NCBI GenBank assembly: GCA_963765765.1
Contig: CAVXYC010000020.1
Coordinates: 512,001-576,000, forward strand
Direction of reading: 5' to 3'
DNA: 64,000 nucleotides
Source of the DNA: an uncultured Chloroflexia bacterium
Lineage (GTDB): Bacteria; Chloroflexota; UBA6077; JACCZL01
Shown: positions 3,728 through 44,620 of the stretch, one piece after another
How positions within the stretch are numbered: position 1 is the first letter of the stretch
Layout of the letters: each line of letters opens with the position of its first letter
Position numbers and translations under genes: made by a program
Notes under the pieces: model-generated
What the model was told of the DNA's origin: nothing
Database searches by the model: none
The model's input: the letters and a program-made list of their open reading frames with translations, nothing else

Positions 3728-4967
3728 GTGCGACTGTCATTCTGGGTCTCTGTAGTCTCAACTGCGTTGCTAACACTGGCCTGCTCGCCCACGACACCGT
3801 CACCCACTGCCGCCCCGGCAAAACCGACGGCCGCGGCCGGCGCGCACCCGCCGCGTCCCCGGCTGCCGCGTCCTCACCCGCTGCCGCGGCATCGCCTGGT
3901 GCGGCAGCGTCTCCGGCTGCTGCAGGCGCCTCAACTGGCGGGGCGCCCGCCGCGTCAGCAAGCAAACCGGCTGTCGCGCCGGACTACTCGTTCTACGCGG
4001 GCAAAACCGTACGAATCCTGGTGCCCTTCGCGCCGGGCGGCGGGCAGGATATCACCGCGCGCCTGTTTGCCAGCAAATGGGGCGACTTCTTTCCTAGCAA
4101 ACCCAACTTTATCGTCGAGAACATGCCTGGCGCGGGCGGCGCCGTGGCCATGCGGGACTTGATGGAAAAGAAAGCGCCAGACGGACTTACGCTGATTCTG
4201 CCCGGATCCGGGGTTGCATTGCGATGGTTCCTCAAGGAGCAGGGTCACACCTACCCAATGGAAAAGATGCGTGCGATCGGGGCGCTTCCATCCGGACCCG
4301 TAAACGTGGTTCGGACGGACGCGGGAGATTCACTCGAAAAGCTGATCGGGCGAGATAAGCCATTGCGCAGCGGCCACAACGCGCCGGCGCGCTTGGACCA
4401 GTCGACGGCGCCTTGATGATGCGCATGTTGGGTGTGCCCATGGACTTCATCTACGGATTCGAGGGATACGGGGAGGTCGCCATCGCCGTGGAGCGCGGTG
4501 AGATCGAAAACTCGTCTCCTGGCATTCCTGGCTACCTCCAGACGTGGATACCAATGGCGGAGAGTAAGATGATCTATCCGCTATTCCAGCTTGGACAGCT
4601 CAACGAGAAGGGTGAGGTGGTGCGCAGTCCAATGCTCCCAAATGTCCCCACCGGATATGAGGAGTACAAGCGAGTTAAGCGCACCGAGCCATCAGGCGAG
4701 GACTGGGAAGCCTACAAGGTCCTGATCGGTATGAGTGCGCTGAACGGCGCAGTGCTGACTCATCCGGACTTACCCGCCGAGCGACTTTCCGCCCTTCTTG
4801 ATAGCTTCAAAAAGATGATCTCCGATCCGTCATGGGAGCCGGAGACGGTCAGAGTCCTGGGTGCGCCTACGCCGGCCGTCACCGGGGACGTTTCCGAGGC
4901 GTCTATGCAGGTAATGACCGAGGCGCCGGCCTCGGTCGTGGACTTACTCTTACAGGCCGGCAAGTAA
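3728..4967 (+). CDS. tctC: TctC/Bug-family substrate-binding lipoprotein (frameshifted)
   Basis: Lipobox LTLAC, Ala/Pro linker, GKTVRILVPFAPGGGQDITAR, VENMPGAGG, AVERGEIE. Confidence 0.85.
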
Positions 4968-5040: not shown

Positions 5041-7278
5041 ATGACGGGCGACATGCGGAGCGAATTTAACTGGCACGAACCGCCGTCCGCGGATCGAGTT
5101 GACGGTGCCGAGAAGGTCACCGGCGCTGCACAGTTCGCCGCCGACGTGGCGCGGCCGGGCCTGCTTCTCGCCAGGGTCCTGCGAAGCCCCCACCCTCACG
5201 CGCGGATTGTACAGATCGACGCGAGTAGAGCGAGAGCGCTGCCTGGCGTGCATGCTGTACTCACTGGGCAAGATCTGGCTGACTACCGCATCGGGCGTGC
5301 AATGCGCGACATGCCGCTCCTGGCGCATGACAAGGTTCGCTTTATTGGCGAGAAAGTCGCGGCAGTCGCGGCCGAGGATGCGGAAATAGCCGAAGCCGCT
5401 TGCGCGCTGATCGACATCGAATACGAAGAGCTGCCTGCTGTATTCGATCCGCTTGCGGCTATCCAACACGCCGCGCCGATGGTCCACGACCCTGATCTCG
5501 TTCGGGCCTGGAAGACACCCACGCAGGTCGTGGCCGATTATCCAAACAGCGTCTCGATGCCCACGTGGGGCAATACGGTCGAAGAGCTCCAGCAGGAGTT
5601 TCTGCACTGCGCACACGTGTTTGAGCACACTTTCCATACGCCCAATCAGCACCAGGGTTACCTGGAGCCCCACACGGCCACCGTCGAGATCGACGAGCAA
5701 GGACGCGCCCACTTCTGGGCGTCCAATAAGGCGCCATTCCTGCTGTTCAACTACCTCAAGGACAGCATGGGACTCACGCGCAACGAGATAGAGTTCCACA
5801 TGCAGCCACTCGGAGGCGACTTCGGCGGTAAGGGCTCGTTCATGGACATCCCACTGGCGTACTTCCTGGCTAAGGCCGCTGGCCGTCCGGTGCGAATCAC
5901 CATGTCGTACGCCGAGGAGCTCATCGCCGGAAACCCGCGGCACGCCTGCACCATCGTCGTCAAGAGCGGTTTCGATGCCGATGGTCGAATTCGGGCCCGC
6001 TATACGCGGGCGTACTTCAACAGTGGTGCATACGCGGCATTCAAGCCAGCGCCCGACGCCACCCTACCCAACATCCGTGATGGTGGCATGGGCACATACG
6101 AGCCACCAGTCTGGCGGGTGGAAGGGCACATGATCTACACGAACACCGTTCCGTGTGGTCACATGCGCGCCCCGGGCGACGCCCAACCCTACCACGCACA
6201 GGAATGCCACATGGACCTGTGCGCACGGGCCATGGGCATTGATCCGCTGGCGTTGCGTTTCCGCAACGCCACCCATGACCGACGCGATCGATTCAAAGGC
6301 GGCTCCGGTGGAGGCGCGCCGCCACGAGCGACCGAAGTACTCCAGATGGCAGCGGAAGCCATTGACTGGGCTGCTCCGCGAGCCGAGGGCGTGGGACGCG
6401 GAATCGCCCTGGTTGGCATCGGCAACAGCGTTGGCATCTATAGCGCCGAGATCGTCGTCGAACGCGACGGGACCGTCGTGATGCGAACTCCGATGATGGA
6501 AAACGGTGCGGGACAGCTTACAGCGTTTCAACAGCTTACGGCCGAGGAATTCGGCGTGCCCCTGAGTCAAGTCCGCGTTGAGCAATCGCTCGAGAACATC
6601 GAGTTCGATCGGGGACTCGGCGGAAGTCGGATTACCCGAATGACCGGGAAGATTATCAACATCATCCATACGACGCTACGTAAGCGCCTGGCCGAACTTC
6701 TGGCGGCTGAGCTTGGTGTAACCGCTGAGGTGATCATCTCCGAGCCCGGCGGGTTTCGATCACCCGACGGCAGTTTTCACAGCCTCGCCGACGTCGCGGA
6801 TCTCTCCCCTGAGCCACTCTCCGAAGTGCTTAAGTACGAAGGCGCCAACGAGGATAAGGTGGAAGCATTTGCCGCGCAGGCGGTGGAAGTTCACGTGGAT
6901 CGCGAGACGGGCGACGTAAAGGTCCTTCGCGCAGTCACGGCCCACGAGCTTGGCCGCGTGATCAACCCGCTCCAGCACCAGGGTCAGATCGATGGCGCTC
7001 TGTTGCAAGGGTTCGGGTACGCGATGACCGAAGGGCTCGTTGTGGAGGACGGGCGCGTCGTGAACGCGGGACTCCATGAGTACAAACTGCCATCGATCGC
7101 GGACCTGCCGCCGCTCGAAACCTACAAGCTCCCACCTGACTTAAGGCTGGGCATCACGCCCATAGGCGAAGGCGCGAACTGTGGGATGTCCGCCGCGATC
7201 GTGAATGCCATCATCGACGTGGTTGGCCAGCAGGTGGAGATTCCCGTCAGCGCCGAAGCGATACGGAACCTACGGTAA
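5041..7278 (+). CDS. Xanthine dehydrogenase-family molybdopterin-binding large subunit
   Basis: Intact 745 aa ORF; KVTGAAQF, RSPHPHARI, GGDFGGKG, GQIDGALLQGFGYA motifs. Confidence 0.92.
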   Translation: MTGDMRSEFNWHEPPSADRVDGAEKVTGAAQFAADVARPGLLLARVLRSPHPHARIVQIDASRARALPGVHAVLTGQDLADYRIGRAMRDMPLLAHDKVRFIGEKVAAVAAEDAEIAEAACALIDIEYEELPAVFDPLAAIQHAAPMVHDPDLVRAWKTPTQVVADYPNSVSMPTWGNTVEELQQEFLHCAHVFEHTFHTPNQHQGYLEPHTATVEIDEQGRAHFWASNKAPFLLFNYLKDSMGLTRNEIEFHMQPLGGDFGGKGSFMDIPLAYFLAKAAGRPVRITMSYAEELIAGNPRHACTIVVKSGFDADGRIRARYTRAYFNSGAYAAFKPAPDATLPNIRDGGMGTYEPPVWRVEGHMIYTNTVPCGHMRAPGDAQPYHAQECHMDLCARAMGIDPLALRFRNATHDRRDRFKGGSGGGAPPRATEVLQMAAEAIDWAAPRAEGVGRGIALVGIGNSVGIYSAEIVVERDGTVVMRTPMMENGAGQLTAFQQLTAEEFGVPLSQVRVEQSLENIEFDRGLGGSRITRMTGKIINIIHTTLRKRLAELLAAELGVTAEVIISEPGGFRSPDGSFHSLADVADLSPEPLSEVLKYEGANEDKVEAFAAQAVEVHVDRETGDVKVLRAVTAHELGRVINPLQHQGQIDGALLQGFGYAMTEGLVVEDGRVVNAGLHEYKLPSIADLPPLETYKLPPDLRLGITPIGEGANCGMSAAIVNAIIDVVGQQVEIPVSAEAIRNLR

Positions 7279-36060: not shown

Positions 36061-36135
36061 GCCGATGTAGCTCAGTGGTAGAGCAGCTGTTTCGTAAACA
36101 GCAGGCCGTCGGTTCGAGTCCGACCATCGGCTCCA
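36061..36135 (+). tRNA. tRNA-Thr(CGT)
   Basis: GCCGATG/CATCGGC acceptor stem, anticodon stem GCTGT/ACAGC with loop TTCGTAA, GGTTCGAGTCC T-arm, encoded CCA. Confidence 0.97.
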
Positions 36136-36143
36136 CAATTTAC

Positions 36144-36188
36144 GAACAAAAACACCTCGATGGGCTTCCGTCGGAGGTGTTTTTGTTC
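36144..36188. terminator. Hairpin after the tRNA (bidirectional terminator-like)
   Basis: GAACAAAAACACCTC / GAGGTGTTTTTGTTC perfect 15-bp inverted repeat. Confidence 0.75.
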
Positions 36189-36204
36189 CCAACTGACAGT
36201 GACA

Positions 36205-36233
36205 TTGACAGTAATCGGCGGTAGAAGTATGCT
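36205..36233 (+). promoter_or_regulatory. Sigma70-type promoter of the integrase, overlapping TGACAGT repeats
   Basis: TTGACA-17 bp-TATGCT; TGACAGT at 36194 and 36206. Confidence 0.65.
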
Positions 36234-36290
36234 GCTCCCGAGCGGCGAGAGCCCTGGAAATCAGGCGCTGCAGCTCAATGGAGGGTCGGC

Positions 36291-37444
36291 ATGGCGAAAG
36301 TTCGCGGCGCTCGGGAAGGGAGCATCTACCAGCGCAAGAGCGACGGCCGCTGGGTCGCTGCCTGCACGGTCAACGGCAAGCAGCAGTACCAGTACGCCAG
36401 AACAAAAGAGGAAGCTCGCCAGAAACTGCGCGAGATGCAGCGCAGGCGGGAGGACGGGCAGCCAGTCACCCTGCCGCGCCAGACGCTGGGGCAATTCCTT
36501 GACCGCTGGCTGGAGGACGCGATCAAGCCGAGCGTCCGCTCGCGCACGTATGCCAGCTATGCTCAGATGGTGCGGCTCCATCTCAAGCCGCCCTGGGCCA
36601 TCACCGGCTGGACCAGCTCACCCCGCAGCAGGTTCAGGCATTCATCAGAGCAAAGAGCGAGACGAAGAGCCAAAAGGGCGACGGCAAACTCTCCACCCGG
36701 ACGGTCAATTACCTCCGAGACATCCTCCGCCAGGCGCTCAACCAGGCCATCAAGTGGGACCTCGTCACCCGTAACGTTGCCGAGCTAACGAGCCCGCTTC
36801 GAAGCGAGCGCCGTGAGGCTCAACGGCTCAGCCCGACGCAGTGCATCGCGCTCCTCGACGCCGCGCGGGGCGATCGGCTGGAAGCGCTCTATGTGGTCAC
36901 CCTTGCCACTGGCATTCGCCAGGGGGAAGCCCTTGGCTTGCATTGGGGCGATGTCGATCTGGATCAGGGCACGCTGACCCTGCGGACGCAGCTCCAGCGG
37001 GTTGATGGCAAGTACGACCTCGAGCCGCTCAAGACAGAACGATCTCGCCGTGTGTTGCCCCTGCTGCCGCTGGCAGTCGACAGCCTTCGAAGGCATCATA
37101 CCCAGCAGATTGAGGAGCGGCTGGTATCCGGGCCCGATTGGCAGAACGAGCGCGACCTCATCTTCACGACCAGGGACGGCGCGCCACTGAACGCCCGCGT
37201 CGCCGTCAGCAAGTTCAAGGCGCTCCTCAGGCGAGCCGACTTGCCCGACGTGACGTACCATGGTCTACGACACTCGTGCGCCTCGCTGCTGGCCTACCTC
37301 GACGTTCACCCGAGCGTCATCATGGCGATCCTCGGGCACAGCACATCCCGGTTGACGATGGATCTCTATACCCACGTCGATCCGTCGCTGCTACGCGACG
37401 CGGCTGTCAAGATGCAGGACCTCCTGGCAGGTGGGCGGAGGTAG
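36291..37444 (+). CDS. Tyrosine integrase (frameshifted)
   Basis: EGSIYQRKSDGRW arm domain, ATGIRQGEALGL, HGLRHS, ILGHS, TMDLYTH. Confidence 0.92.
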
Positions 37445-37451
37445 CTCGCAA

Positions 37452-37480
37452 TTCGCACCTCGTCGGGCGGCGAGTATAAC
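37452..37480 (+). promoter_or_regulatory. Putative sigma70 promoter for the candidate ncRNA and DUF3800 gene
   Basis: TTCGCA-17 bp-TATAAC immediately before the structured region. Confidence 0.5.
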
Positions 37481-37483
37481 GAT

Positions 37484-37655
37484 GCGCCGGCGGCCCGGTG
37501 AAGGACGACGCCTCCCCCCTGTGCAGGCGTGGAAGCATGTCGGCAAGTGGTAAGCTGAGTCACACGGACACTTTCAGCGGCGGCTGGCTGGGGCTGCTTA
37601 CGGACTCGCTGTTCATGCCCGTGGAGGGCGGCTTTACCAGCACCCGCGCCGGCGC
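37484..37655 (+). ncRNA. Candidate rod-shaped structured RNA upstream of DUF3800 gene
   Basis: Nested helices found by hand: 37484-92/37647-55, 37497-503/37632-38, 37509-15/37623-30, 37526-36/37608-19, 37550-55/37596-601, with G-U pairs. Confidence 0.6.
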
Positions 37656-37720
37656 CACATCACGCCCAGGTGCGCGCCAATCGGCATCAGATCGTGAACT
37701 GCTTCCAGAGCGTGCTGTAG

Positions 37721-38485
37721 TTGCGCGTTACTGCTTACGCTGACGAATCGGGGCAGGAGCGGTCGATCGGTGTGTACACGGTCGCTGGCTTGGCGTTTAG
37801 CCCCAACGGAGAACTGCAGTTCGTCAAGCATTGGATGCGCGACTTAGCTGTATTTGGACTCACTGAATTCCACACGAATGATATCGTGGCGAGACTGAAG
37901 AGGGGCCGTTCCGCTCTAGCAGAAAGTGACTTCGATCGGCTTTGTGGACGGCTCTTGCGAACCATCAGGAGGAACGCGCTGTTTGCGGTATCCGTAAACA
38001 TAGACACCTGGGCCTACGAATGCACGACCAACTTCGAGCCAGCAGATCCTCAATTCGAAGATCAATCCGTACGGGATCGGGCTTGAGTTTTTCATGGGCG
38101 ATGTGGTGAGGCACATTCAGCCAGATGATGAAGTTCGCTTTATGTTCGACCAAGGCAATACTTCGGCCAAGTGGAAAGCAAGATTCTGGTCCAACATTGA
38201 GCACATGCGCAGCCTTTCAACAGGCCAAGTACGGGCCGCCGCGCGAGAATTGTCAATGGACAGCTTCCAGCGCTCTCGTGGGTGTCACCTCTCCAGTCGG
38301 CCGATTTATTTGCGTGGGTCGCTGCGAAGGGATTCTCGCTACACATCGGACGCGGAGTTGCAGTAAACGCGCCTCAGTGCCTTATGTCAACGTACCCTTT
38401 ACGCCTGCGGCGTAGTCTTCGGCGCTGCACTTTTCCCTGCGCCAATTCGTTCCGTCGGCGTATGAGTCGTCCATTGCCATTTTGA
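37721..38485 (+). CDS. DUF3800-family protein (frameshifted; 3' end uncertain)
   Basis: N-terminal AYADESG, EFHT, FMFDQG, C-terminal LQSADLFAW (DE and QxxD signatures of DUF3800). Confidence 0.75.
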
Positions 38486-38705
38486 CGAGCATGGGCAAGT
38501 CCCTGGCGAAGGTAGATGGGGTTTTACTGACAGTTCGGGCCACTTATGATCCGCCTCGGTACGCAATTCTGGACATTCTGCCCGCGAAGTGCTCGTGATG
38601 ATCGAGTAAGCAAAGTCATTCTGTCAATTAGCCTCGTGCGCCATGCCAACCGTCACCGACAGCAACGTCGAACAAGTCGATTGGCGGAAGCTATAGTCGG
38701 ATACT

Positions 38706-38733
38706 CGTTCCGATAATCCCCATTATCGGAAGT
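38706..38733. repeat. dif-like palindromic site 1
   Basis: CGTTCCGATAA-TCCCCA-TTATCGGAAGT (11-6-11). Confidence 0.7.
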
Positions 38734-38873
38734 CCCACACCAAGCTCCGCTGCGCTACATGGTCCAGCTGCGGGCCTAGGGTAGGCGTCCAGCTTCCAGC
38801 TTCCTTCACGGAAGCCCGAGACTGCTCCACCCGCAGCAAGCCCCCCAGTAGATGGGCGTACACTAGCGGCATC

Positions 38874-39896
38874 ATGACGCCAACCGGTCCGCCGCACCCG
38901 TCGCCGCTTCCTGAGGGGTGGCCTGTCCATGGCCGGCCTCGGTCTGCTGGCCGGCTGCGGGCTGCTCCCTCCCCAGGCCCCAACGTCCGAGCGGGTGCGC
39001 CTGATCGGGGTCCTCGGCGACGCGCCTGGCGAGCGTTGGGACGCGTTCTGGGATGGGCTGCGGGAGCTGGGCTGGGTCGAGGGCCGGAACCTCGCCGTGG
39101 AGTCCCGCTGGGCCGAGGGAGACTCCCGACGGTACCGGGCCCTCGCGACCGAGCTCGTCGAGCGGAAGGTCGAGCTGATTGTGGTGGGGACGTCGAATGC
39201 CAGCCTCGCCGCCAAGCAGGCGACCACCACCGTCCCGCTCGTGGCGATCCTGTTCAGCGGGAAGGCAATCGAGAGCGGGCTCGTCGACAACATCGCGCGG
39301 CCCGGCGGGAACATCACTGGGACGGCCGGGCATAAACGGGTCGCAACTGGAAGGCAGGCAGCTTCAACTATTGAAGGAAGCAGTCCCGTACGCCTCCCGT
39401 GTAGCCGTGCTCCGTAGAGGCAGCGCAGCGGCGACCTCGGCATCAGAGGTCCGCGTGCGGGCGCTCCAGGAGGCCGCGCCCGGCCTCGGGGTACACCTTC
39501 ACGTCGTCCACATACCGAACATCAGCGGCCTCGACGACGCGTTCGCGGCCATGTCCACAGCCGGCGCTGATGCCGTCAAGATTCTCCGCCACCCAGTTGG
39601 AGTCTGCGTGGGGACGCATCGCCGAGCTGGCGCTCCAGTATCGGCTGCCGTCGGTCACGGAATATCCGGAGTTCGCTCGGGCGGGAGGCTGGCTAGCATA
39701 TGGCTTGAGTCGAGCCGAGATCTACCGGAGCGCAGCACCGTACGTGGACAAAATCCTGCGAGGTGCCCGCCCCGGCGATCTGCCGATGGAGCGGCCGACA
39801 GAGTTCGACTTCGTCATCAATCTCAAAACAGCGCAGGCCCTGGGGCTGACCATCCCGCAGGCCCTCCTAACGCAGGCAACCGAAGTCATCCAGTAG
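38874..39896 (+). CDS. Orphan ABC transporter substrate-binding protein, ABC_sub_bind type (frameshifted)
   Basis: LLAGC lipobox, GLRELGWVEGRNL, ARPGGNITG, YVDKILRGARPGDLPMERPTEFDFVINLKTAQALGLTIP. Confidence 0.88.
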
Positions 39897-39907
39897 CAAG
39901 GCCCGCT

Positions 39908-39935
39908 CGTTCCGATAACCCCCATTATCGGACTG
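39908..39935. repeat. dif-like palindromic site 2
   Basis: CGTTCCGATAA-CCCCCA-TTATCGGACTG; 26/27 identical to site 1 over 39906-39932. Confidence 0.7.
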
Positions 39936-40370
39936 ACTCACGGGTCTTGGGTCTCATAACGCTTCTTCTGCGAACCAGGTCTTCCCGAGCCGATCTCACA
40001 TCCTCTTATTTTGGGGTCGCAATAACTCCTGATTAACGTCGTTATGCGAACCGTGCGCAGAATAGGGCGAAAGTCGGCAGGCGTAAATTTCCGTAAACGC
40101 ACTCGGAACGACTGGTGCTGCAATTCCGCGCGCCTACGATTGCGGGCCGAGCGTCCAAGAACCGCCGTCACGTACGCGCGAGAAATCGCCACGAGGGAGC
40201 GGTGCAGATCCCGACGTACGCAGCGGCTAATTTCGTGCGACGCTTCTCCAGCCATCACGCAATGGCGCGGAGCGCTCGATGTGTGCTGTCTCCAGTGCGG
40301 TGCGCCAATGCGCTGGGCACAGAGCTCGCGATGAATGTGCGGCCCAGAATCGTGAATCGATTTGAGGCTG

Positions 40371-40960
40371 TTACTCGTCCTCCTCCGCCAGTTCCGTCGC
40401 CATCTGCATGACCGCCACGGGATCGAGCCCGTATTTCGCCGCAATACGCTCCACCTTTCGCCGCATCGTGAGCATGTCCTCGTGCCGCCCCGAAAAGAGA
40501 CCCAGGTGCTTGCCGAGCAGCTCTAGGACTTGGCAGCTTCGGGTGCAGCTTGATGCGTACTCGCGTCGAGTGACGGAGCGCCCGTTGCCTCGCGCGATGT
40601 CGATCTCCTTCACTCTGACCTGCGCCACCGCGCGTGTGTCGAGCCCGCTCGATTCCCGCAAGCTCGAAATGGTTCGGTCCCCACACCGCGTAATCCTTGA
40701 GGTTGGCGAACGCGATCGACGCCAGGTCCTCAAGCACGCGGTCGGCGTGGAGTCCGACGCGTGCCGATCGCTCCGCCTTCGCGCGTGAAATAGCGTCGAA
40801 AACCTTAGCATTCCTTAGCAACCGCGACGCTTCGACCGCCGCAGAACCGGGGCTGTAGCCCGCACGGATCGCCGCCTGGGTCCCGTTCAGGTCCAGCAAA
40901 TATTCTGCGACAAAGCGCGCCTGCCGCGCGGTCAGCTTCTATGTCAGCCACGCTGCTCAT
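40371..40960 (-). CDS. terS: Phage terminase small subunit (frameshifted)
   Basis: KLTARQARFVAEYLLDLNGTQAAIRAGYS and LELLGKHLGLF, typical of Terminase_2. Confidence 0.85.
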
Positions 40961-41962
40961 CTCCGCTCCTTCCGCCGCCATCCGCTGCCGACATCGATTC
41001 GGGCCCTTCCGCTCACGCGCCCGTCTGGCGGACTCCCGCTTCCACTGGCGCTGCATCTCGGGAGCACAGCGGTCGCAGTAGTGGGCACGGTCGTATCGGG
41101 GCGACCGATCTGAAGGGTACGCATGGCCGCAGCGATTGCAGATCGTCAGGCTCGGCTGATTCACGACGACAGCCATGAGCAGGGCTGCGAAAATCCCGAA
41201 CAGACCCTCGCACTGCACGTAGTACTGGAATCGTTCAGCCGCTTCGTCCCAGTCGGCTCCCGGCGCCGTCCGTGCCAGGTGCGCCAGTTTCGTGACACCG
41301 AGCGCGAGGACGGCGCGCTGGATACTGACGGGCTCATGATGAGCGTACGATTCCATCTCGTTGTCGAGTCGCATTGTGAAGATGGATTCCACCACCTTCC
41401 ACTGACCTGCGTCCGATACCGGGCCCTCGTTCAGGCCCGCGGTGAGATCGATGAGCGTGCGGAACCGCGTCGCCCACGCGCGCCAGCCCTCGACCGGCTC
41501 CGCCCAACGATCGCCATTTCAGCTGCCGCGGTCGGCACGCGAGCCGATAGGGGGCCTCGGGTCTTGCGGATTGTGGAAGAACAAATAGTCCTCGCGGTAC
41601 GTGGAACCGATCTCCGAGAGTTCGTGCGCTGCGGGATAGAGGTGATCCGCGCACAACTCGAGTGGTCCCCAAATACGGGCATACTCAAAGATGGTCTCAT
41701 CGGACGCGTCGGCCAGGCGACTGAACTGCCAAAAAAGCCTCGGGTGGAACCGCACCTCGGGGAAAGGAAGAACGTCCGAGATTGCGATCCGCGGACCCTC
41801 CGGATTCTTGTTCCACGTCCACGTAATGAAGCGGTCACCCTCATGGTCTTCGAGTCTGATGTCGAGCGGTATCTCGACTCGGTTCGGGCCCGTACGGGAC
41901 CCGATCGCGGTGGGCAGCAGTGCTACCCGATGGCGCTTCACGTTGGCCCCTCGTACGTCCAT
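40961..41962 (-). CDS. Hypothetical protein with C-terminal CxxC..CxxC zinc finger and basic tail (frameshifted)
   Basis: ORFs 41519..41962 and 40805..41395; ICNRCG...YCDRC...KRESARRARERK. Confidence 0.5.
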
Positions 41963-41977
41963 GGATGGTTTCCAATT

Positions 41978-41996
41978 AGAGTTTAACTTAGACTCT
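41978..41996. promoter_or_regulatory. Palindromic operator-like site between divergent genes
   Basis: AGAGTTTAA-C-TTAGACTCT, 8/9 inverted match in an AT-rich spacer. Confidence 0.4.
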
Positions 41997-42081
41997 TAAG
42001 AATCCAACAACACGGCCCGTCCTGTGCTTCTACGGATCCATGAGAACGTGCGTGCATGAGCACGCACGCGGGAGATACGGA

Positions 42082-42258
42082 ATGGACCCTATTCTGCTCA
42101 AAGTTGAGGAGTGTGCTCGCGTGCTGAATCTCGGACGGTCGAAGGTCTTCGAGATGATCCGTCGCGGCGAGTTGCCGGTGGTGCGATTCGGACGGAGCGT
42201 GCGCGTTCCAGTGGTGGCGCTGCGTGAGTTGATCGAGCAGCAGACCGACCAGCGCTAG
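42082..42258 (+). CDS. Excisionase-family HTH (HTH_17) protein
   Basis: LLKVEECARVLNLGRSKVFEMIRRGELPVVRFGRSVRVP. Confidence 0.88.
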   Translation: MDPILLKVEECARVLNLGRSKVFEMIRRGELPVVRFGRSVRVPVVALRELIEQQTDQR

Positions 42259-42317
42259 CGAGCAGTCGCACGCACCCGCTCTTAGCGCACGGGCTAGTAG
42301 CCGCATCTGGCATCGAC

Positions 42318-42707
42318 ATGACGGTCGCTTTTTCCGCGGCTCCGGCAGCCATCGAGGCGGCTCGTGGCTATGTGGAGCGAGGGTGGCCCGTCCTGCGTCT
42401 CCATGGCGTGCCCGACGGCAAATGCACGTGCTCAAAGGCGTCATGCCGCTCGGCGGGCAAACACCCGAGTATTCTGCGTGGGGTTCGCGGGGCAACCAGT
42501 GATCTCCAGTGCATCGAGCGCTGGTTACGAGAGAAACCGGACCACAACATCGGGCTCGCCGCCGGCGCTGCGTCCGGATTCGTCGTGCTGGACGTCGATC
42601 CGCGGAACGAAGGTTTCGACAGCCTCGAACGTTTGGAGCGACAGCACGGCGTGCTCCCGCGGTCGCGATCCGATCGGGGCCGCGCTGGATGGGTACAGTA
42701 CGGATGA
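42318..42707 (+). pseudogene. Bifunctional primase/polymerase (Prim-Pol) N-terminal fragment
   Basis: GWPVL..CTC...C..AGKHP, NIGLAAG..SGFVVLDVDPR; similarity stops after about 115 aa. Confidence 0.8.
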
Positions 42708-42959
42708 GCTGAAAGGTATGCTGCAAATGCTGCGTGCGCAGGCGGTCGAATCGGGACTCATCGCCGCACCACCTGGCGGGTTGCTGCCACCGAAGATCTA
42801 ATTCGCCGACGGCGTGCACCCCTGGGTGAACACCTCCGCTGCCAACAGCCCAGGCTCTGACACGACCGGCAACACCAGGGACGGCACGCGCAGGGAGGCC
42901 ACGGGGAGTATACGCAGCCATCGGCGTAGGCTCGAATCGGGGTCGGTCCAAGGGCGGCC

Positions 42960-43160
42960 CGGTCCTGGAATCCCGGATCCCAGCGCTCGTCTGGATACTG
43001 GCGTGCCCAGGCTGAGGCTGATCTGCTCGATCCGCGCGTCCCCCTGGAGCACTAGCTTCCCGAAGGTCCGCCGCAGATCGTGCGCCGCAATCTGAACACC
43101 GAGCGACTCGGTATACGCGCGCACCATATCGGCAACGGCCTGATCGACATCCGCGTGGTG
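42960..43160 (-). pseudogene. XerC-like tyrosine recombinase C-terminal remnant
   Basis: AHDLRRTFGKL..IEQISLSLG, then HASIQT in a shifted frame. Confidence 0.7.
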
Positions 43161-43443
43161 CTGAACCTGCCCCCTTTGGTGATCGCATGGAAGACGGGGC
43201 CCGCATCGATCTCCGCGCATGGCGCATGACTCGGACTTTCGTCGATGGAACCACGCCTCGCGGAGTAGTTCTAACAGCGTCATTGGTCAATGACTGCAAG
43301 AGGAGCGACCATGAGGGTCAAGTTGGCGACCGTGCCGCACCACTGGAGCCGACCGTGTCATGTCGGGAGTGCACGGGCACTTTACAGTCCCGATAGTGCA
43401 TTTACACCTTGTAAAGCATGGCTTCTCCCGTCAGTTGAAGCGG

Positions 43444-43472
43444 TTGACAAATCGGAAACTGGACTGTACTCT
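43444..43472 (+). promoter_or_regulatory. Sigma70 promoter, probably giving a leaderless mRNA
   Basis: TTGACA-17 bp-TACTCT, ATG at 43480 with no SD; TTTACA-CCT-TGTAAA palindrome at 43401-43415. Confidence 0.6.
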
Positions 43473-43479
43473 GAGAGTC

Positions 43480-44620
43480 ATGGATAGAGAGGCGTTTCTC
43501 GCAGAACTCATAGAGCGCCAGGGCAACGCTTCAGGGCGAGAGTTCGCTGAGCGGCTCGGTATCTCTGAGAGTTACTGGTCGCTTATTCGACGAGGCGAGC
43601 GCCCGCTGACGTTGGCGGTGATTCAGCGAGCTATTCAGGAATTCCCGGACCTTTACTTTGTTCAAGGTCTTCAACCCGAGGTAGCCGCAGCGATCGGGCC
43701 GCGTACACCAGAATATCGTTCGGGACGTTGGCGGCGCGATGTGAAACGTCTATGGGTGAATGTCGCAGTGGCGATCTTCATGGCGTTTGGCAGCCTTGTC
43801 GCTACGTCGGGCGCCTTTACGGACTCGACCGGTGAACTGTTTGCTCAATCGGGGCCAACGCCCCAATCTGAACGGCAAGACCAGCGGCAGGCAACTAACA
43901 CACCGAGGGCGACAAATACGCCGAGGGCCACTAACACGCCAAGCGCTACGAACACGCCTGGTGCCACATCGACCAGGTCGCCGGCGACCGTCACGGCGAC
44001 CTCGGCCGGCCTCGACCGGCCCGCCTGCGACGAGTACGCCCGCTGCAACGGTGACGACGACGCCAGCGAGCAGAACCCAGCCACCGCCCGGTACCCCTAC
44101 GGCAACCACGACGCCCGGGACCTCTACCACAACCACGACGCCCGGGACCTTGCTGGTTCCCGTCCCAGGCGGGAGCCCGGTGTCTATCGAGCGGATTACT
44201 GCAAGCTGCGACACTGGCAGCATGGAGGGCCGGATCTACTTCTCAATCTCCGGCACCCCAGGTGAAACCGTGAACTACTCCGTAGAACTCACCGTCTTTT
44301 CGCATATACCCCCTTCACGGCCTGGTGGCGGTAACCAATGGAACGAGACGGGGGGCTCGACCACCGTCAGCGGATCATTCACTATTCCCGCTAGTGGCAG
44401 TGGGACCACCTCGGAGTCGTATTCAATCGCGGTCAATCCTGTGCCGGGCGCCAACTCGTATCGTGTTCAAGTGACCGATGCCAGTTCGAACGTCGTCGTA
44501 GCGAGCAGGAACACTAAGGGTCCCAGCCTCCAGTGCTTCGGGCCCCCAACCAAGCCGAATACCCGGGCCACGTCGCTTCTTTCCCAGCTCTGGCTCGTCG
44601 CCGCAGGTCGCGAACTATAG
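43480..44620 (+). CDS. XRE-type HTH fused to TM segment, Thr/Pro-rich repeats and beta-rich C-terminal domain (frameshifted)
   Basis: REFAERLGISESYWSLIRRGER; hydrophobic WVNVAVAIFMAFGSLVA; ATNTP repeats; continues in the frame of ORF 43760..44620. Confidence 0.6.
43891..43962 (+). repeat. Four 18-bp coding repeats (ATNTPx)
   Basis: ATNTPR ATNTPR ATNTPS ATNTPG with synonymous variation. Confidence 0.8.

Follow-up and report, generated by a model that had tools for sequence, protein, structure and literature searches.

Directly repeated dif-like palindromes as candidate Xer-type boundaries of gene modules in an uncultured Chloroflexia bacterium

INTRODUCTION

Gene modules bounded by Xer-type recombination sites have been described almost only in Acinetobacter, and their movement is still debated; a full-text literature search returned papers on dif modules for that genus only. 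The Acinetobacter dif (pdif) modules, found on plasmids and chromosomes, consist of one or a few genes between 28-base Xer-type sites of 11-6-11 layout, can stand next to one another and are presumed to move by Xer recombination. Their sites carry distinct XerC and XerD arms and resemble the chromosomal dif site of the host. The modules are usually flanked by inversely oriented sites (PMC11705084).

Several Xer systems work with a single recombinase. In XerS/difSL, XerH/difH, XerA and XerL, an Xer-like gene has its target site close by, and the site is single-copy, lies near the terminus and serves dimer resolution. For XerL, one study describes a single-recombinase dif whose 10-base arms are perfectly dyad-symmetric, and a mobile element that imitates it (PMC9765430). 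Directly repeated dif-like sites also flank the Xer-integrated elements CTX, TLC, the gonococcal island and LME-1, which integrate at the chromosomal dif itself. Integron arrays, in turn, are built from mostly single-gene units, each ending in a recombination site and all in one orientation, and are served by an IntI-type integrase. The attC sites of integrons are imperfect palindromes of 57-141 bases with RYYYAAC and GTTRRRY ends.

Here we analyse a stretch of 64,000 nucleotides from an uncultured Chloroflexia bacterium, called the window throughout; positions given without a contig name refer to it. A preliminary description had proposed that two directly repeated dif-like palindromes in the window bracket an excisable single-gene cassette acted on by one recombinase. 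Compared with the Acinetobacter modules, the locus is chromosomal, belongs to an uncultured host, lies in a window of 61% G+C and is related to modules whose cargo is mostly orphan solute-binding-protein genes.

RESULTS

Two oriented palindromes in the window

The 27-mer CTCGTTCCGATAAYCCCCATTATCGGA occurs at 38704-38730 and at 39906-39932, with 26 of 27 bases identical and 1202 bases from start to start, which confirms the near-identical repeat pair of the preliminary description. At up to two mismatches these two copies are the only matches in the window to TCCGATAA-N6-TTATCGGA, a pattern that did not appear in any of 100 dinucleotide-preserving shuffles. The copies and their surroundings are as follows.

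36061..36135, + strand: tRNA-Thr (CGT), likely integration point of the surrounding island
36291..37444, + strand: phage-type integrase, N-terminal and catalytic parts in two frames (phrog_1, E 6e-57)
38704..38730, + strand: left palindrome copy, CTCGT-TCCGATAA-TCCCCA-TTATCGGA, with a C-rich spacer on the + strand; member of a genome-wide family
38731..38853, + strand: stretch of 123 bases between the left site and the start of paralog homology; no other copy in the genome
38874..39896, + strand: ABC_sub_bind (PF04392) gene, a pseudogene as assembled, with Pfam halves in different frames and indels relative to a paralog
39906..39932, + strand: right palindrome copy, CTCGT-TCCGATAA-CCCCCA-TTATCGGA, in the same orientation as the left copy
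39933..40055, + strand: flank shared with a paralogous locus on C30 (85%), where it leads into an Xer-like recombinase gene
40017-40051: wider second palindrome, TCGCAATAA-N15-GTTATGCGAAC, within this flank and beyond the right site
40255..40899, - strand: small terminase subunit remnant (PF03592; phrog_51)

Both copies have the 11-6-11 geometry that had been claimed for them, with ATAA and TTAT bordering a C-rich centre of six bases. The left arm is CGTTCCGATAA in both; the right arms, TTATCGGAAGT in the left copy and TTATCGGACTG in the right copy, are of the form TTATCGGAAxx, and each is complementary to the left arm at 9 of 11 positions. The centres differ at the first of their six bases (TCCCCA in the left copy, CCCCCA in the right one). 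An XerD arm of the TTATGTxAA type is absent from both copies, and the pattern ATAA-N6-TTATGNNAA has no match in the whole genome, in agreement with the earlier remark that a canonical XerD arm is lacking. The stop codon of the enclosed gene, TAG, occupies 39894-39896, and the right copy begins 9 bases past it, against the approximately 10 bp reported before.

The enclosed gene and its phage-derived surroundings

The gene between the two copies had been regarded as an orphan ABC binding-protein gene. Its two halves score 45.2 and 64.6 bits against PF04392 (cut-off 25.9), which places it in the family, and these halves lie on two ORFs in different frames, at 38929-39417 and 39570-39896. Relative to an intact paralog with 93% identity, C27:48905-49951, its frame is changed by three or more indels: 2 bases are missing near 38895, one base is added near 39330, and further ones fall near 39440-39450. 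The leader, RRRFLRGGLSMAGLGLLAGC, is of the twin-arginine kind and has a lipobox-like motif; just upstream, the frame of the leader has a TGA, and the ATG at 38874 belongs to a different frame. Judged from its reading frames, the gene is a pseudogene as assembled, and the frameshifts in this assembly could be assembly errors. Its neighbourhood yielded neither a permease nor an ATPase gene, and the neighbours that can be named are phage-derived. In this sense the gene is an orphan, as described before, but as assembled it is not intact.

As the integrase and the small terminase remnant flank the module, it lies within phage-derived DNA, and by this gene content the surroundings are a degraded prophage or island. 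Pfam and phrog profile searches gave no matches for the other ORFs between 37.5 and 44.3 kb. Among 40 relatives, the island (36150-44300) has no homologue except for the ends of the ABC gene and weak matches to the integrase.

A genome-wide family of sites in arrays of uniform orientation

The preliminary description had suggested a scan of the genome and of its relatives. Across the 6.49 Mb and 33 contigs of the genome, 27 family copies were found at up to two mismatches, against none for the reversed pattern; at up to three mismatches the count rose to 37, including a few spurious places. With a weight matrix derived from the 27 sites, about 37 places scored 19 bits or more, and none did in the reversed genome. 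The 27 sites give the consensus CGTTCCGATAA-CCCCCA-TTATCGGAACG, of 11-6-11 layout, which has the geometry of Xer/dif-type core sites (about 28 bases, 11-base arms, a 6-base centre, and ATAA and TTAT borders). ATAA-N6-TTAT itself occurs at 27 places in the genome, 21 of which are members of the family.

Because the 6-base spacer is both conserved and asymmetric, each site has an orientation. Clusters of sites are found at C23:452-459 kb (eight or nine sites), C7:0-4 kb, C7:36-45 kb and C1:183-194 kb, and on C27 and C32. All 15 pairs of neighbouring sites no more than 10 kb apart have the same orientation, with the enclosed genes on either strand; at up to three mismatches this holds for 17 of 18 pairs, the lone exception being a doubtful site. 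The window pair is thus not an isolated one, and the motif brackets other genes in same-orientation arrays. The centres vary within the C23 array (CCTCCA, CCCGCC, TCCGCC, TCCCTA, CCCCCA and CCCTCA), many family sites are degenerate, and many cargo genes are fragmented.

The relatives were searched with the 24-base pattern at up to two mismatches. Among 41 genomes (this one and 40 relatives, including G006, which is marked unpublished and on which no specific claim rests), there were 22 matches here, none in the same-genus genome, one and two in two relatives, and none in the other 37. A looser scan of the same-genus genome found a few degenerate relics of the site. A chromosomal dif is present in a single copy and conserved in relatives; this family has 27-37 copies and a match in two of 40 relatives, the same-genus genome not being one of them at this threshold.

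Two other roles for the sites were considered and set aside. An intrinsic terminator was rejected, as the site hairpins have no T-run and none was called by a terminator scan. A tie between site orientation and replication strand was also set aside, as the GC skew is weak and its sign agreed in only some of the clusters.

Modules, their cargo and their boundaries

Most inter-site segments contain one gene, often ABC_sub_bind. In the C23 array, five of the six segments contain one ORF of 170-375 aa and one contains two ORFs of 78 aa; in order, and with genes on either strand, the segments encode an ABC_sub_bind protein, a phosphofructokinase (PFK), a 226-aa unknown, a SnoaL-like protein, the two 78-aa ORFs and a further ABC_sub_bind protein. 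The cargo of other arrays includes methyltransferases, an arsenate-reductase-like protein with an aquaporin, an AurF-like protein and an ECF sigma factor. Genome-wide, 63 profile matches to ABC_sub_bind merge into 31 loci, many of them fragmented. Fifteen of the 27 sites lie no more than 500 bases from a PF04392 match, zones that make up about 1% of the genome, and 12 of the 31 ABC_sub_bind loci have a site within 500 bases. The idea that such a cassette helps to explain the spread of permease-less ABC_sub_bind genes is in line with these 12 loci, but does not extend to the others, which have no site at that distance.

The window gene has eight paralogs with 85-93% identity, most of which carry a site or its remnant 14-60 bases after the stop codon. 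Two arrangements can be told apart. In what we call type-A modules, the site follows the stop codon by 9-19 bases; in type-B modules it follows by about 55 bases and has the opposite orientation relative to the gene. For type-A modules, homology between the window and C1:192519, and between the window and C7:229, stops at the last base of the right site, and homology between C1 and C7:35903 begins at the first base of the left site. For type-B modules, which occur as units of site, gene and site, the homology between C23:452360-453600 and C23:457685-458928 (82%) begins 6 bases ahead of the left site and extends into the right site; a third copy, C1:191302-192543, has the same limits, and the flanks of all three are unrelated. 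Not all limits coincide with sites. On the left, the homology of the window module ends 123 bases inside the left site, and some paralog junctions are 57 bases away from a site and not within one.

Xer-like genes and a candidate chromosomal dif

The genome has 21 matches to PF00589. One of them, on C30, is an Xer-like gene located about 220 bases downstream of the site C30:95085, at a locus paralogous to that of the window. Its best NCBIfam models are XerC (162 bits), XerA (161) and XerD (151), all below the cut-off. Genes of the C30 type were found only here, in the same-genus genome (87% identity) and in one further relative, G029 (69%), which also has a perfect site; in the other relatives, recombinase matches are only about 29-36% identical and correspond to the host XerD-like gene. 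The C30 gene is broken by a +1 frameshift relative to its same-genus counterpart, which itself has an in-frame TAG, and the G029 counterpart is without the N-terminal part.

The genes of the host include an XerD-like gene on C29 (C29:40995-42029; 268 bits, cut-off 330) and an Xer-like gene on C10 (C10:276980-278098). About 90 bases upstream of the latter, at C10:278147-278174, lies GGTTACGATAATGCTAATTATATCTACC, of which the genome has one copy. The same-genus genome has it unchanged, and four more relatives have it with 2-3 mismatches; altogether it occurs in six of the 41 genomes, one copy in each, and is absent from the control. Because of its single copy, its conservation and its Xer-like neighbour, we take GGTTACGATAATGCTAATTATATCTACC as a candidate chromosomal dif. 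The comparison with the chromosomal dif that the preliminary description had called for can be made with this putative dif: agreement with the family arm is 9 of 11 positions for its left arm and 6 of 11 for its right arm. From this alignment, the family site looks as if the left arm of the candidate dif had been doubled.

The same pattern in other organisms

In contigs taken from one genome per species, the 24-base pattern occurs at no fewer than 121 loci, a count inflated by related species, against about 9 by our own estimate for random sequence. A scan of 124 flanking ORFs from the 80 listed loci that have 2-kb flanks placed a PF00589 gene no more than 350 bases away at 13 of them, and no recombinase at that distance at the remaining 67; phmmer flagged a recombinase at 15 of the 121 listed loci. 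All 13 PF00589 neighbours are either Xer-like, below every equivalog cut-off, or unnamed. In nine of the 13 loci the site is at or just upstream of the start of the recombinase gene, as it also is at the metagenome locus L171. The palindrome thus adjoins Xer-like genes in other phyla far more often than expected by chance. A metagenome contig carries a site identical to the left copy of the window beside a recombinase only 28% identical to the C30 one, indicating that site and recombinase do not closely track each other. In several genomes from gut metagenomes (L042, L083), two copies with reverse-complementary spacers stand 156-200 bases apart beside an Xer-like gene; by analogy, this is the layout of an inversion switch. 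Scans of metagenomes and of viral sequences found the pattern in mixed contexts at 15 and 24 loci, of which one and three, respectively, had an adjacent tyrosine recombinase, numbers too low to add much. Finally, the other loci have conserved contexts of non-recombinase genes, for instance between a GGDEF and a HAD gene in Marinomonas. At such non-recombinase loci the pattern may serve other proteins.

A second palindrome, and alternative explanations for the sites

Beyond some 15 of the sites, at a distance of about 45-70 bases, there is a wider palindrome with the related half-sites TCCAGATAA-N14-GGTTATCGGAAC. A TTGACA is usually present inside this second palindrome or about 25 bases after it. 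On C30 the second palindrome leads into the recombinase gene. On C32 a 55-aa ORF weakly like the N-terminus of the recombinase (E = 2) is found at the same 43-base distance; a tblastn search for recombinase remnants, with the same-genus recombinase carrying X at its stop as the query, found only a single weak one (E = 2), beside the C32 composite. No Rfam family matched the composite element at the four loci searched. The second palindrome may be the promoter and operator of the recombinase gene, or an accessory site.

Could the family instead consist of REP- or MITE-like repeats, selfish or structural, that a transposase has spread by acting on their hairpins or terminal inverted repeats, and that are intergenic simply because they are tolerated there? 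The sites are short, intergenic and hairpin-forming (-15 to -21 kcal/mol with flanks, z of about -4 on the + strand), the family is multi-copy and lineage-specific, and many copies are decaying. Moreover, the outer ends of the longer composite in which about 15 copies lie, GTTCCGATAAC and GTTATCGGAAC, are inverted repeats about 110-135 bases apart. Most copies, however, are solo 28-base sites without the second motif, and no target-site duplication was seen at three composite ends compared by eye. REP elements with a REP-associated tyrosine transposase have a Y1-transposase gene flanked by the repeats, which often form inverted pairs. None of the three matches to the Y1-transposase family PF01797 in the genome is flanked by repeats, and the uniformly direct neighbours leave no inverted pairs and no alternation of the kind seen in REP pairs. 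A transposed repeat would also leave unexplained why module homology ends at the sites. We consider this explanation improbable.

Slightly less probable still, in our view, is an operator role, in which a dimeric transcription factor would bind the palindrome to control ABC_sub_bind and other uptake or catabolic genes. The dyad is perfect over 8-6-8 to 11-6-11 bases, the enrichment of sites around PF04392 matches is that described above, and type-B genes have a site about 90 bases upstream of their start. The second motif encloses a conserved TTGACA or stands about 25 bases upstream of one, and in Marinomonas and its relatives the position of the pattern between the same genes is fixed, with no neighbouring recombinase. 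An operator would not be expected, however, to have an asymmetric, conserved spacer and one orientation throughout an array whatever the strand of the genes, nor to flank several genes that are pseudogenes as assembled, and the same-genus genome has ABC_sub_bind paralogs but no site at up to two mismatches. The preliminary description had itself raised, against its own proposal, an operator found only at promoters; the positions of the sites after the stop codons of both type-A and type-B genes argue against it.

That the sites are functionless flanks of an ABC_sub_bind family expanded by ordinary duplication and gene conversion, as the eight close paralogs, most of them with sites or remnants after their stops, and the joint decay of sites and genes might suggest, is the least probable of the three, since unrelated genes are flanked as well (PFK, SnoaL-like, methyltransferases, the arsenate-reductase-like gene with aquaporin, the ECF sigma factor), 12 of the 27 sites lie more than 500 bases from any PF04392 match, type-A and type-B modules differ in site orientation relative to the gene and have unrelated linkers, and random breakpoints would not repeatedly hit sites.

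Search for traces of movement

The preliminary description had proposed looking for empty-site alleles or 1.2-kb circular junctions. Neither these nor a presence/absence polymorphism was found in public sequencing runs, metagenome contigs or the genomes of relatives. No public run contained more than 10% of the sampled words of 38200-40400; the run matches are soil or related metagenome contigs with pieces of the ABC gene at less than 95% likeness, and are uninformative on excision, circles and empty sites. In the relatives, the island has no homologue to compare, as described above, and the C23 array is not comparable with the same-genus genome, which is about 78% identical, is in 650 contigs and has a paralogous region that matches better. 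In one low-depth contig, the match ends at 39932 and the sequence is then unlike that of the window; we do not count this contig as evidence.

DISCUSSION

How does the locus compare with the systems described so far? With the pdif modules it shares one or a few genes between 28-base Xer-type sites, and adjacent modules. It differs from them in that both arms of its sites are alike and that all 15 neighbouring pairs are direct rather than inverted. As in the single-recombinase systems, an Xer-like gene has a site close by, about 220 bases upstream of the C30-type gene; those sites are single-copy, whereas the family here has 27-37 copies and the C10 site is the better candidate for a dif. Elements such as CTX, TLC, the gonococcal island and LME-1 resemble the modules in their directly repeated, dif-like flanking sites, but no module here is at the C10 candidate dif.

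The single-gene spacing and the one orientation of the arrays recall integrons, and cargo of an integron-like kind (an acetyltransferase, a glyoxalase) is found at related metagenome loci. The C30 gene, however, scores 79.5 bits against the integron-integrase model TIGR02249, for which the cut-off is 265, and there is no better candidate for an IntI-type integrase among the 21 PF00589 matches, some of which were scanned against NCBIfam. The sites here are 28-base, near-perfect palindromes, their GTTATCG does not fit the GTTRRRY of attC, and the genes are on either strand relative to the sites. The locus therefore departs from integrons, REP elements, chromosomal dif and classical pdif modules in a defining feature of each, and behaves most like pdif modules. 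The family would be a form of dif module in which the sites have symmetric arms and are directly repeated, and the arrays are like those of integrons.

Site geometry, orientation, one-gene spacing, module boundaries, linkage to a recombinase gene and likeness to a dif arm together are best accommodated if the repeats are recombination sites of the Xer type, delimiting modules that can be, or could once be, excised and inserted. We regard the chances that this reading is right as about even. Interruption of phage-derived DNA by the window module is also in its favour, as are the size of the family, its restriction to the lineage and the Xer-like neighbours of the pattern in other phyla. The sites would be core-type targets of an Xer-family tyrosine recombinase, with two 11-base binding arms and a 6-base crossover region; since the two arms are alike, one recombinase species could suffice to occupy both. 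Modules would consist of the genes between two sites of the same orientation. Excised as a circle with one site, a module could be reinserted at any other copy of the site, so that arrays would grow one module at a time, like those of integron cassettes and of elements that integrate at dif sites. The window module would then comprise the ABC_sub_bind gene and the site on its 3' side, and would have entered a degraded prophage. From these features we infer binding and cleavage of the sites, as well as excision and integration.

Several observations weigh against the Xer-module reading. The search for movement gave no direct sign of it, the C30-type recombinase genes are broken in all three genomes that have one, and some module boundaries are imperfect on the left. 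Classical tyrosine recombination needs matching central regions, and the centres differ between the two copies in the window as well as within the C23 array. The metagenome contig that pairs the left-copy site with a distant recombinase, and the 67 of 80 loci elsewhere with no recombinase inside 350 bases, also count against it. The system looks old and decaying: its linked recombinase is broken, and degenerate sites and fragmented cargo genes are numerous. Any activity today would therefore depend on the Xer-like proteins of the host itself. The excisable single-gene cassette of the preliminary description, acted on by one recombinase, thus has partial support. It gains from the bracketing of genes in same-orientation arrays, from boundaries that fall at sites, from the Xer-like gene next to one copy, from arms that resemble one arm of the candidate dif and from the frequent Xer-like neighbours of the palindrome in other phyla. 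It loses by the lack of an empty site, circle or polymorphism, the broken recombinase genes, the mismatched centres of the window pair, the frameshifted gene and a left limit that lies inside the site.

In a broader and rather doubtful reading, the family would represent a third kind of gene cassette beside integrons and the Acinetobacter dif modules, defined by a single Xer-like recombinase, a symmetric 28-base site and chromosomal arrays of directly repeated, excisable one-gene modules. It would be one of the ways for orphan solute-binding-protein genes to multiply and to move in soil bacteria, and the inverted pairs in gut genomes could drive inversion switches. Should the sites be inert relics, the locus would still record the decay of such a system. 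If the Xer-module reading is correct, the principle would be more general than Acinetobacter, as it would operate in the chromosome of an unrelated environmental bacterium with a dedicated Xer-like gene. It would also supply a simpler test case, with one recombinase and direct repeats that should delete. For the ABC_sub_bind family, it would offer a concrete mechanism for part of the large expansions of its permease-less genes.

Composite elements and possible traces of the recombinase

Close to the dif-like site, at a distance of 45-70 bases, lies a second, wider palindrome with related half-sites, of the TCCAGATAA-N14-GGTTATCGGAAC type, usually followed by TTGACA. Its copies in the window and on other contigs of the host genome include the following:

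window 40017-40051: second palindrome
C1:3165, C1:191212, C6:22578, C7:153, C7:45162, C10:49038: further copies
C23:458979, C23:468790, C27:88244, C30:94973 and others: further copies

In a subfamily of these (C1:3165, C1:191212, C23:468790 and C6:22578), about 200 further bases of conserved non-coding sequence come next and terminate near CCGGTTTATCACCGGGCAATATGCATCGG. An Rfam search of the composite of site and second palindrome, conducted with four loci, returned no match.

On C32, a 55-residue ORF (C32:296598-296762; 6599-6763 of excerpt L025) begins 43 bases past the composite element, the same gap that precedes the recombinase start on C30. The resemblance of this ORF to the N-terminal end of the recombinase is weak (tblastn E = 2); it may be the leftover of another recombinase copy. 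At C23:457667-457712 and on C30 (11290-11345 of excerpt L022), a full site has a second left arm (CTCGTTCCGATAA or GTTCCGATAACCCCCA) immediately in front of it; these extra arms could be footprints of aberrant recombination.

The surrounding island and frame-split genes

The module in the window lies within a degraded prophage or island:

window 36061-44300: tRNA-Thr, a phage-type integrase split across two frames and a small terminase remnant

The remaining ORFs of this island were assigned to no family and, apart from the ABC gene ends and weak integrase matches, no homologue of it was found among 40 relatives. Genome-wide, the 63 matches to the ABC_sub_bind profile merged into 31 loci. Many ABC_sub_bind genes and several integrases across the genome are split between frames, reflecting either widespread pseudogenes or assembly indel errors.

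A candidate chromosomal dif and paired sites in other genomes

Outside the window, a single-copy site was found about 90 bases upstream of an Xer-like gene:

C10:278147-278174: ATAA-N6-TTAT site, 28 bases

The site is identical in a same-genus genome and carries 2-3 mismatches in four other relatives, and is a candidate chromosomal dif adjoining its own recombinase gene.

Pairs of sites also occur in other genomes:

L158 (C92 of the related genome G007): a four-gene block (ArsR regulator, pyridine nucleotide-disulphide oxidoreductase, Clp_N protein and a 158-residue ORF) enclosed between two site-like sequences that point the same way, at 34-55 and 3990-4011
L042, 2001-2224; L083, 2001-2180; L031, 2001-2218; L029, 2001-2209: palindrome pairs in gut-metagenome genomes

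The gut-metagenome pairs consist of the same palindrome as the window sites, spaced by 156-200 bases, with spacers that are reverse-complementary or palindromic; in L042 and L083 an Xer-like recombinase gene adjoins the pair. Invertible DNA switches are laid out in this way.
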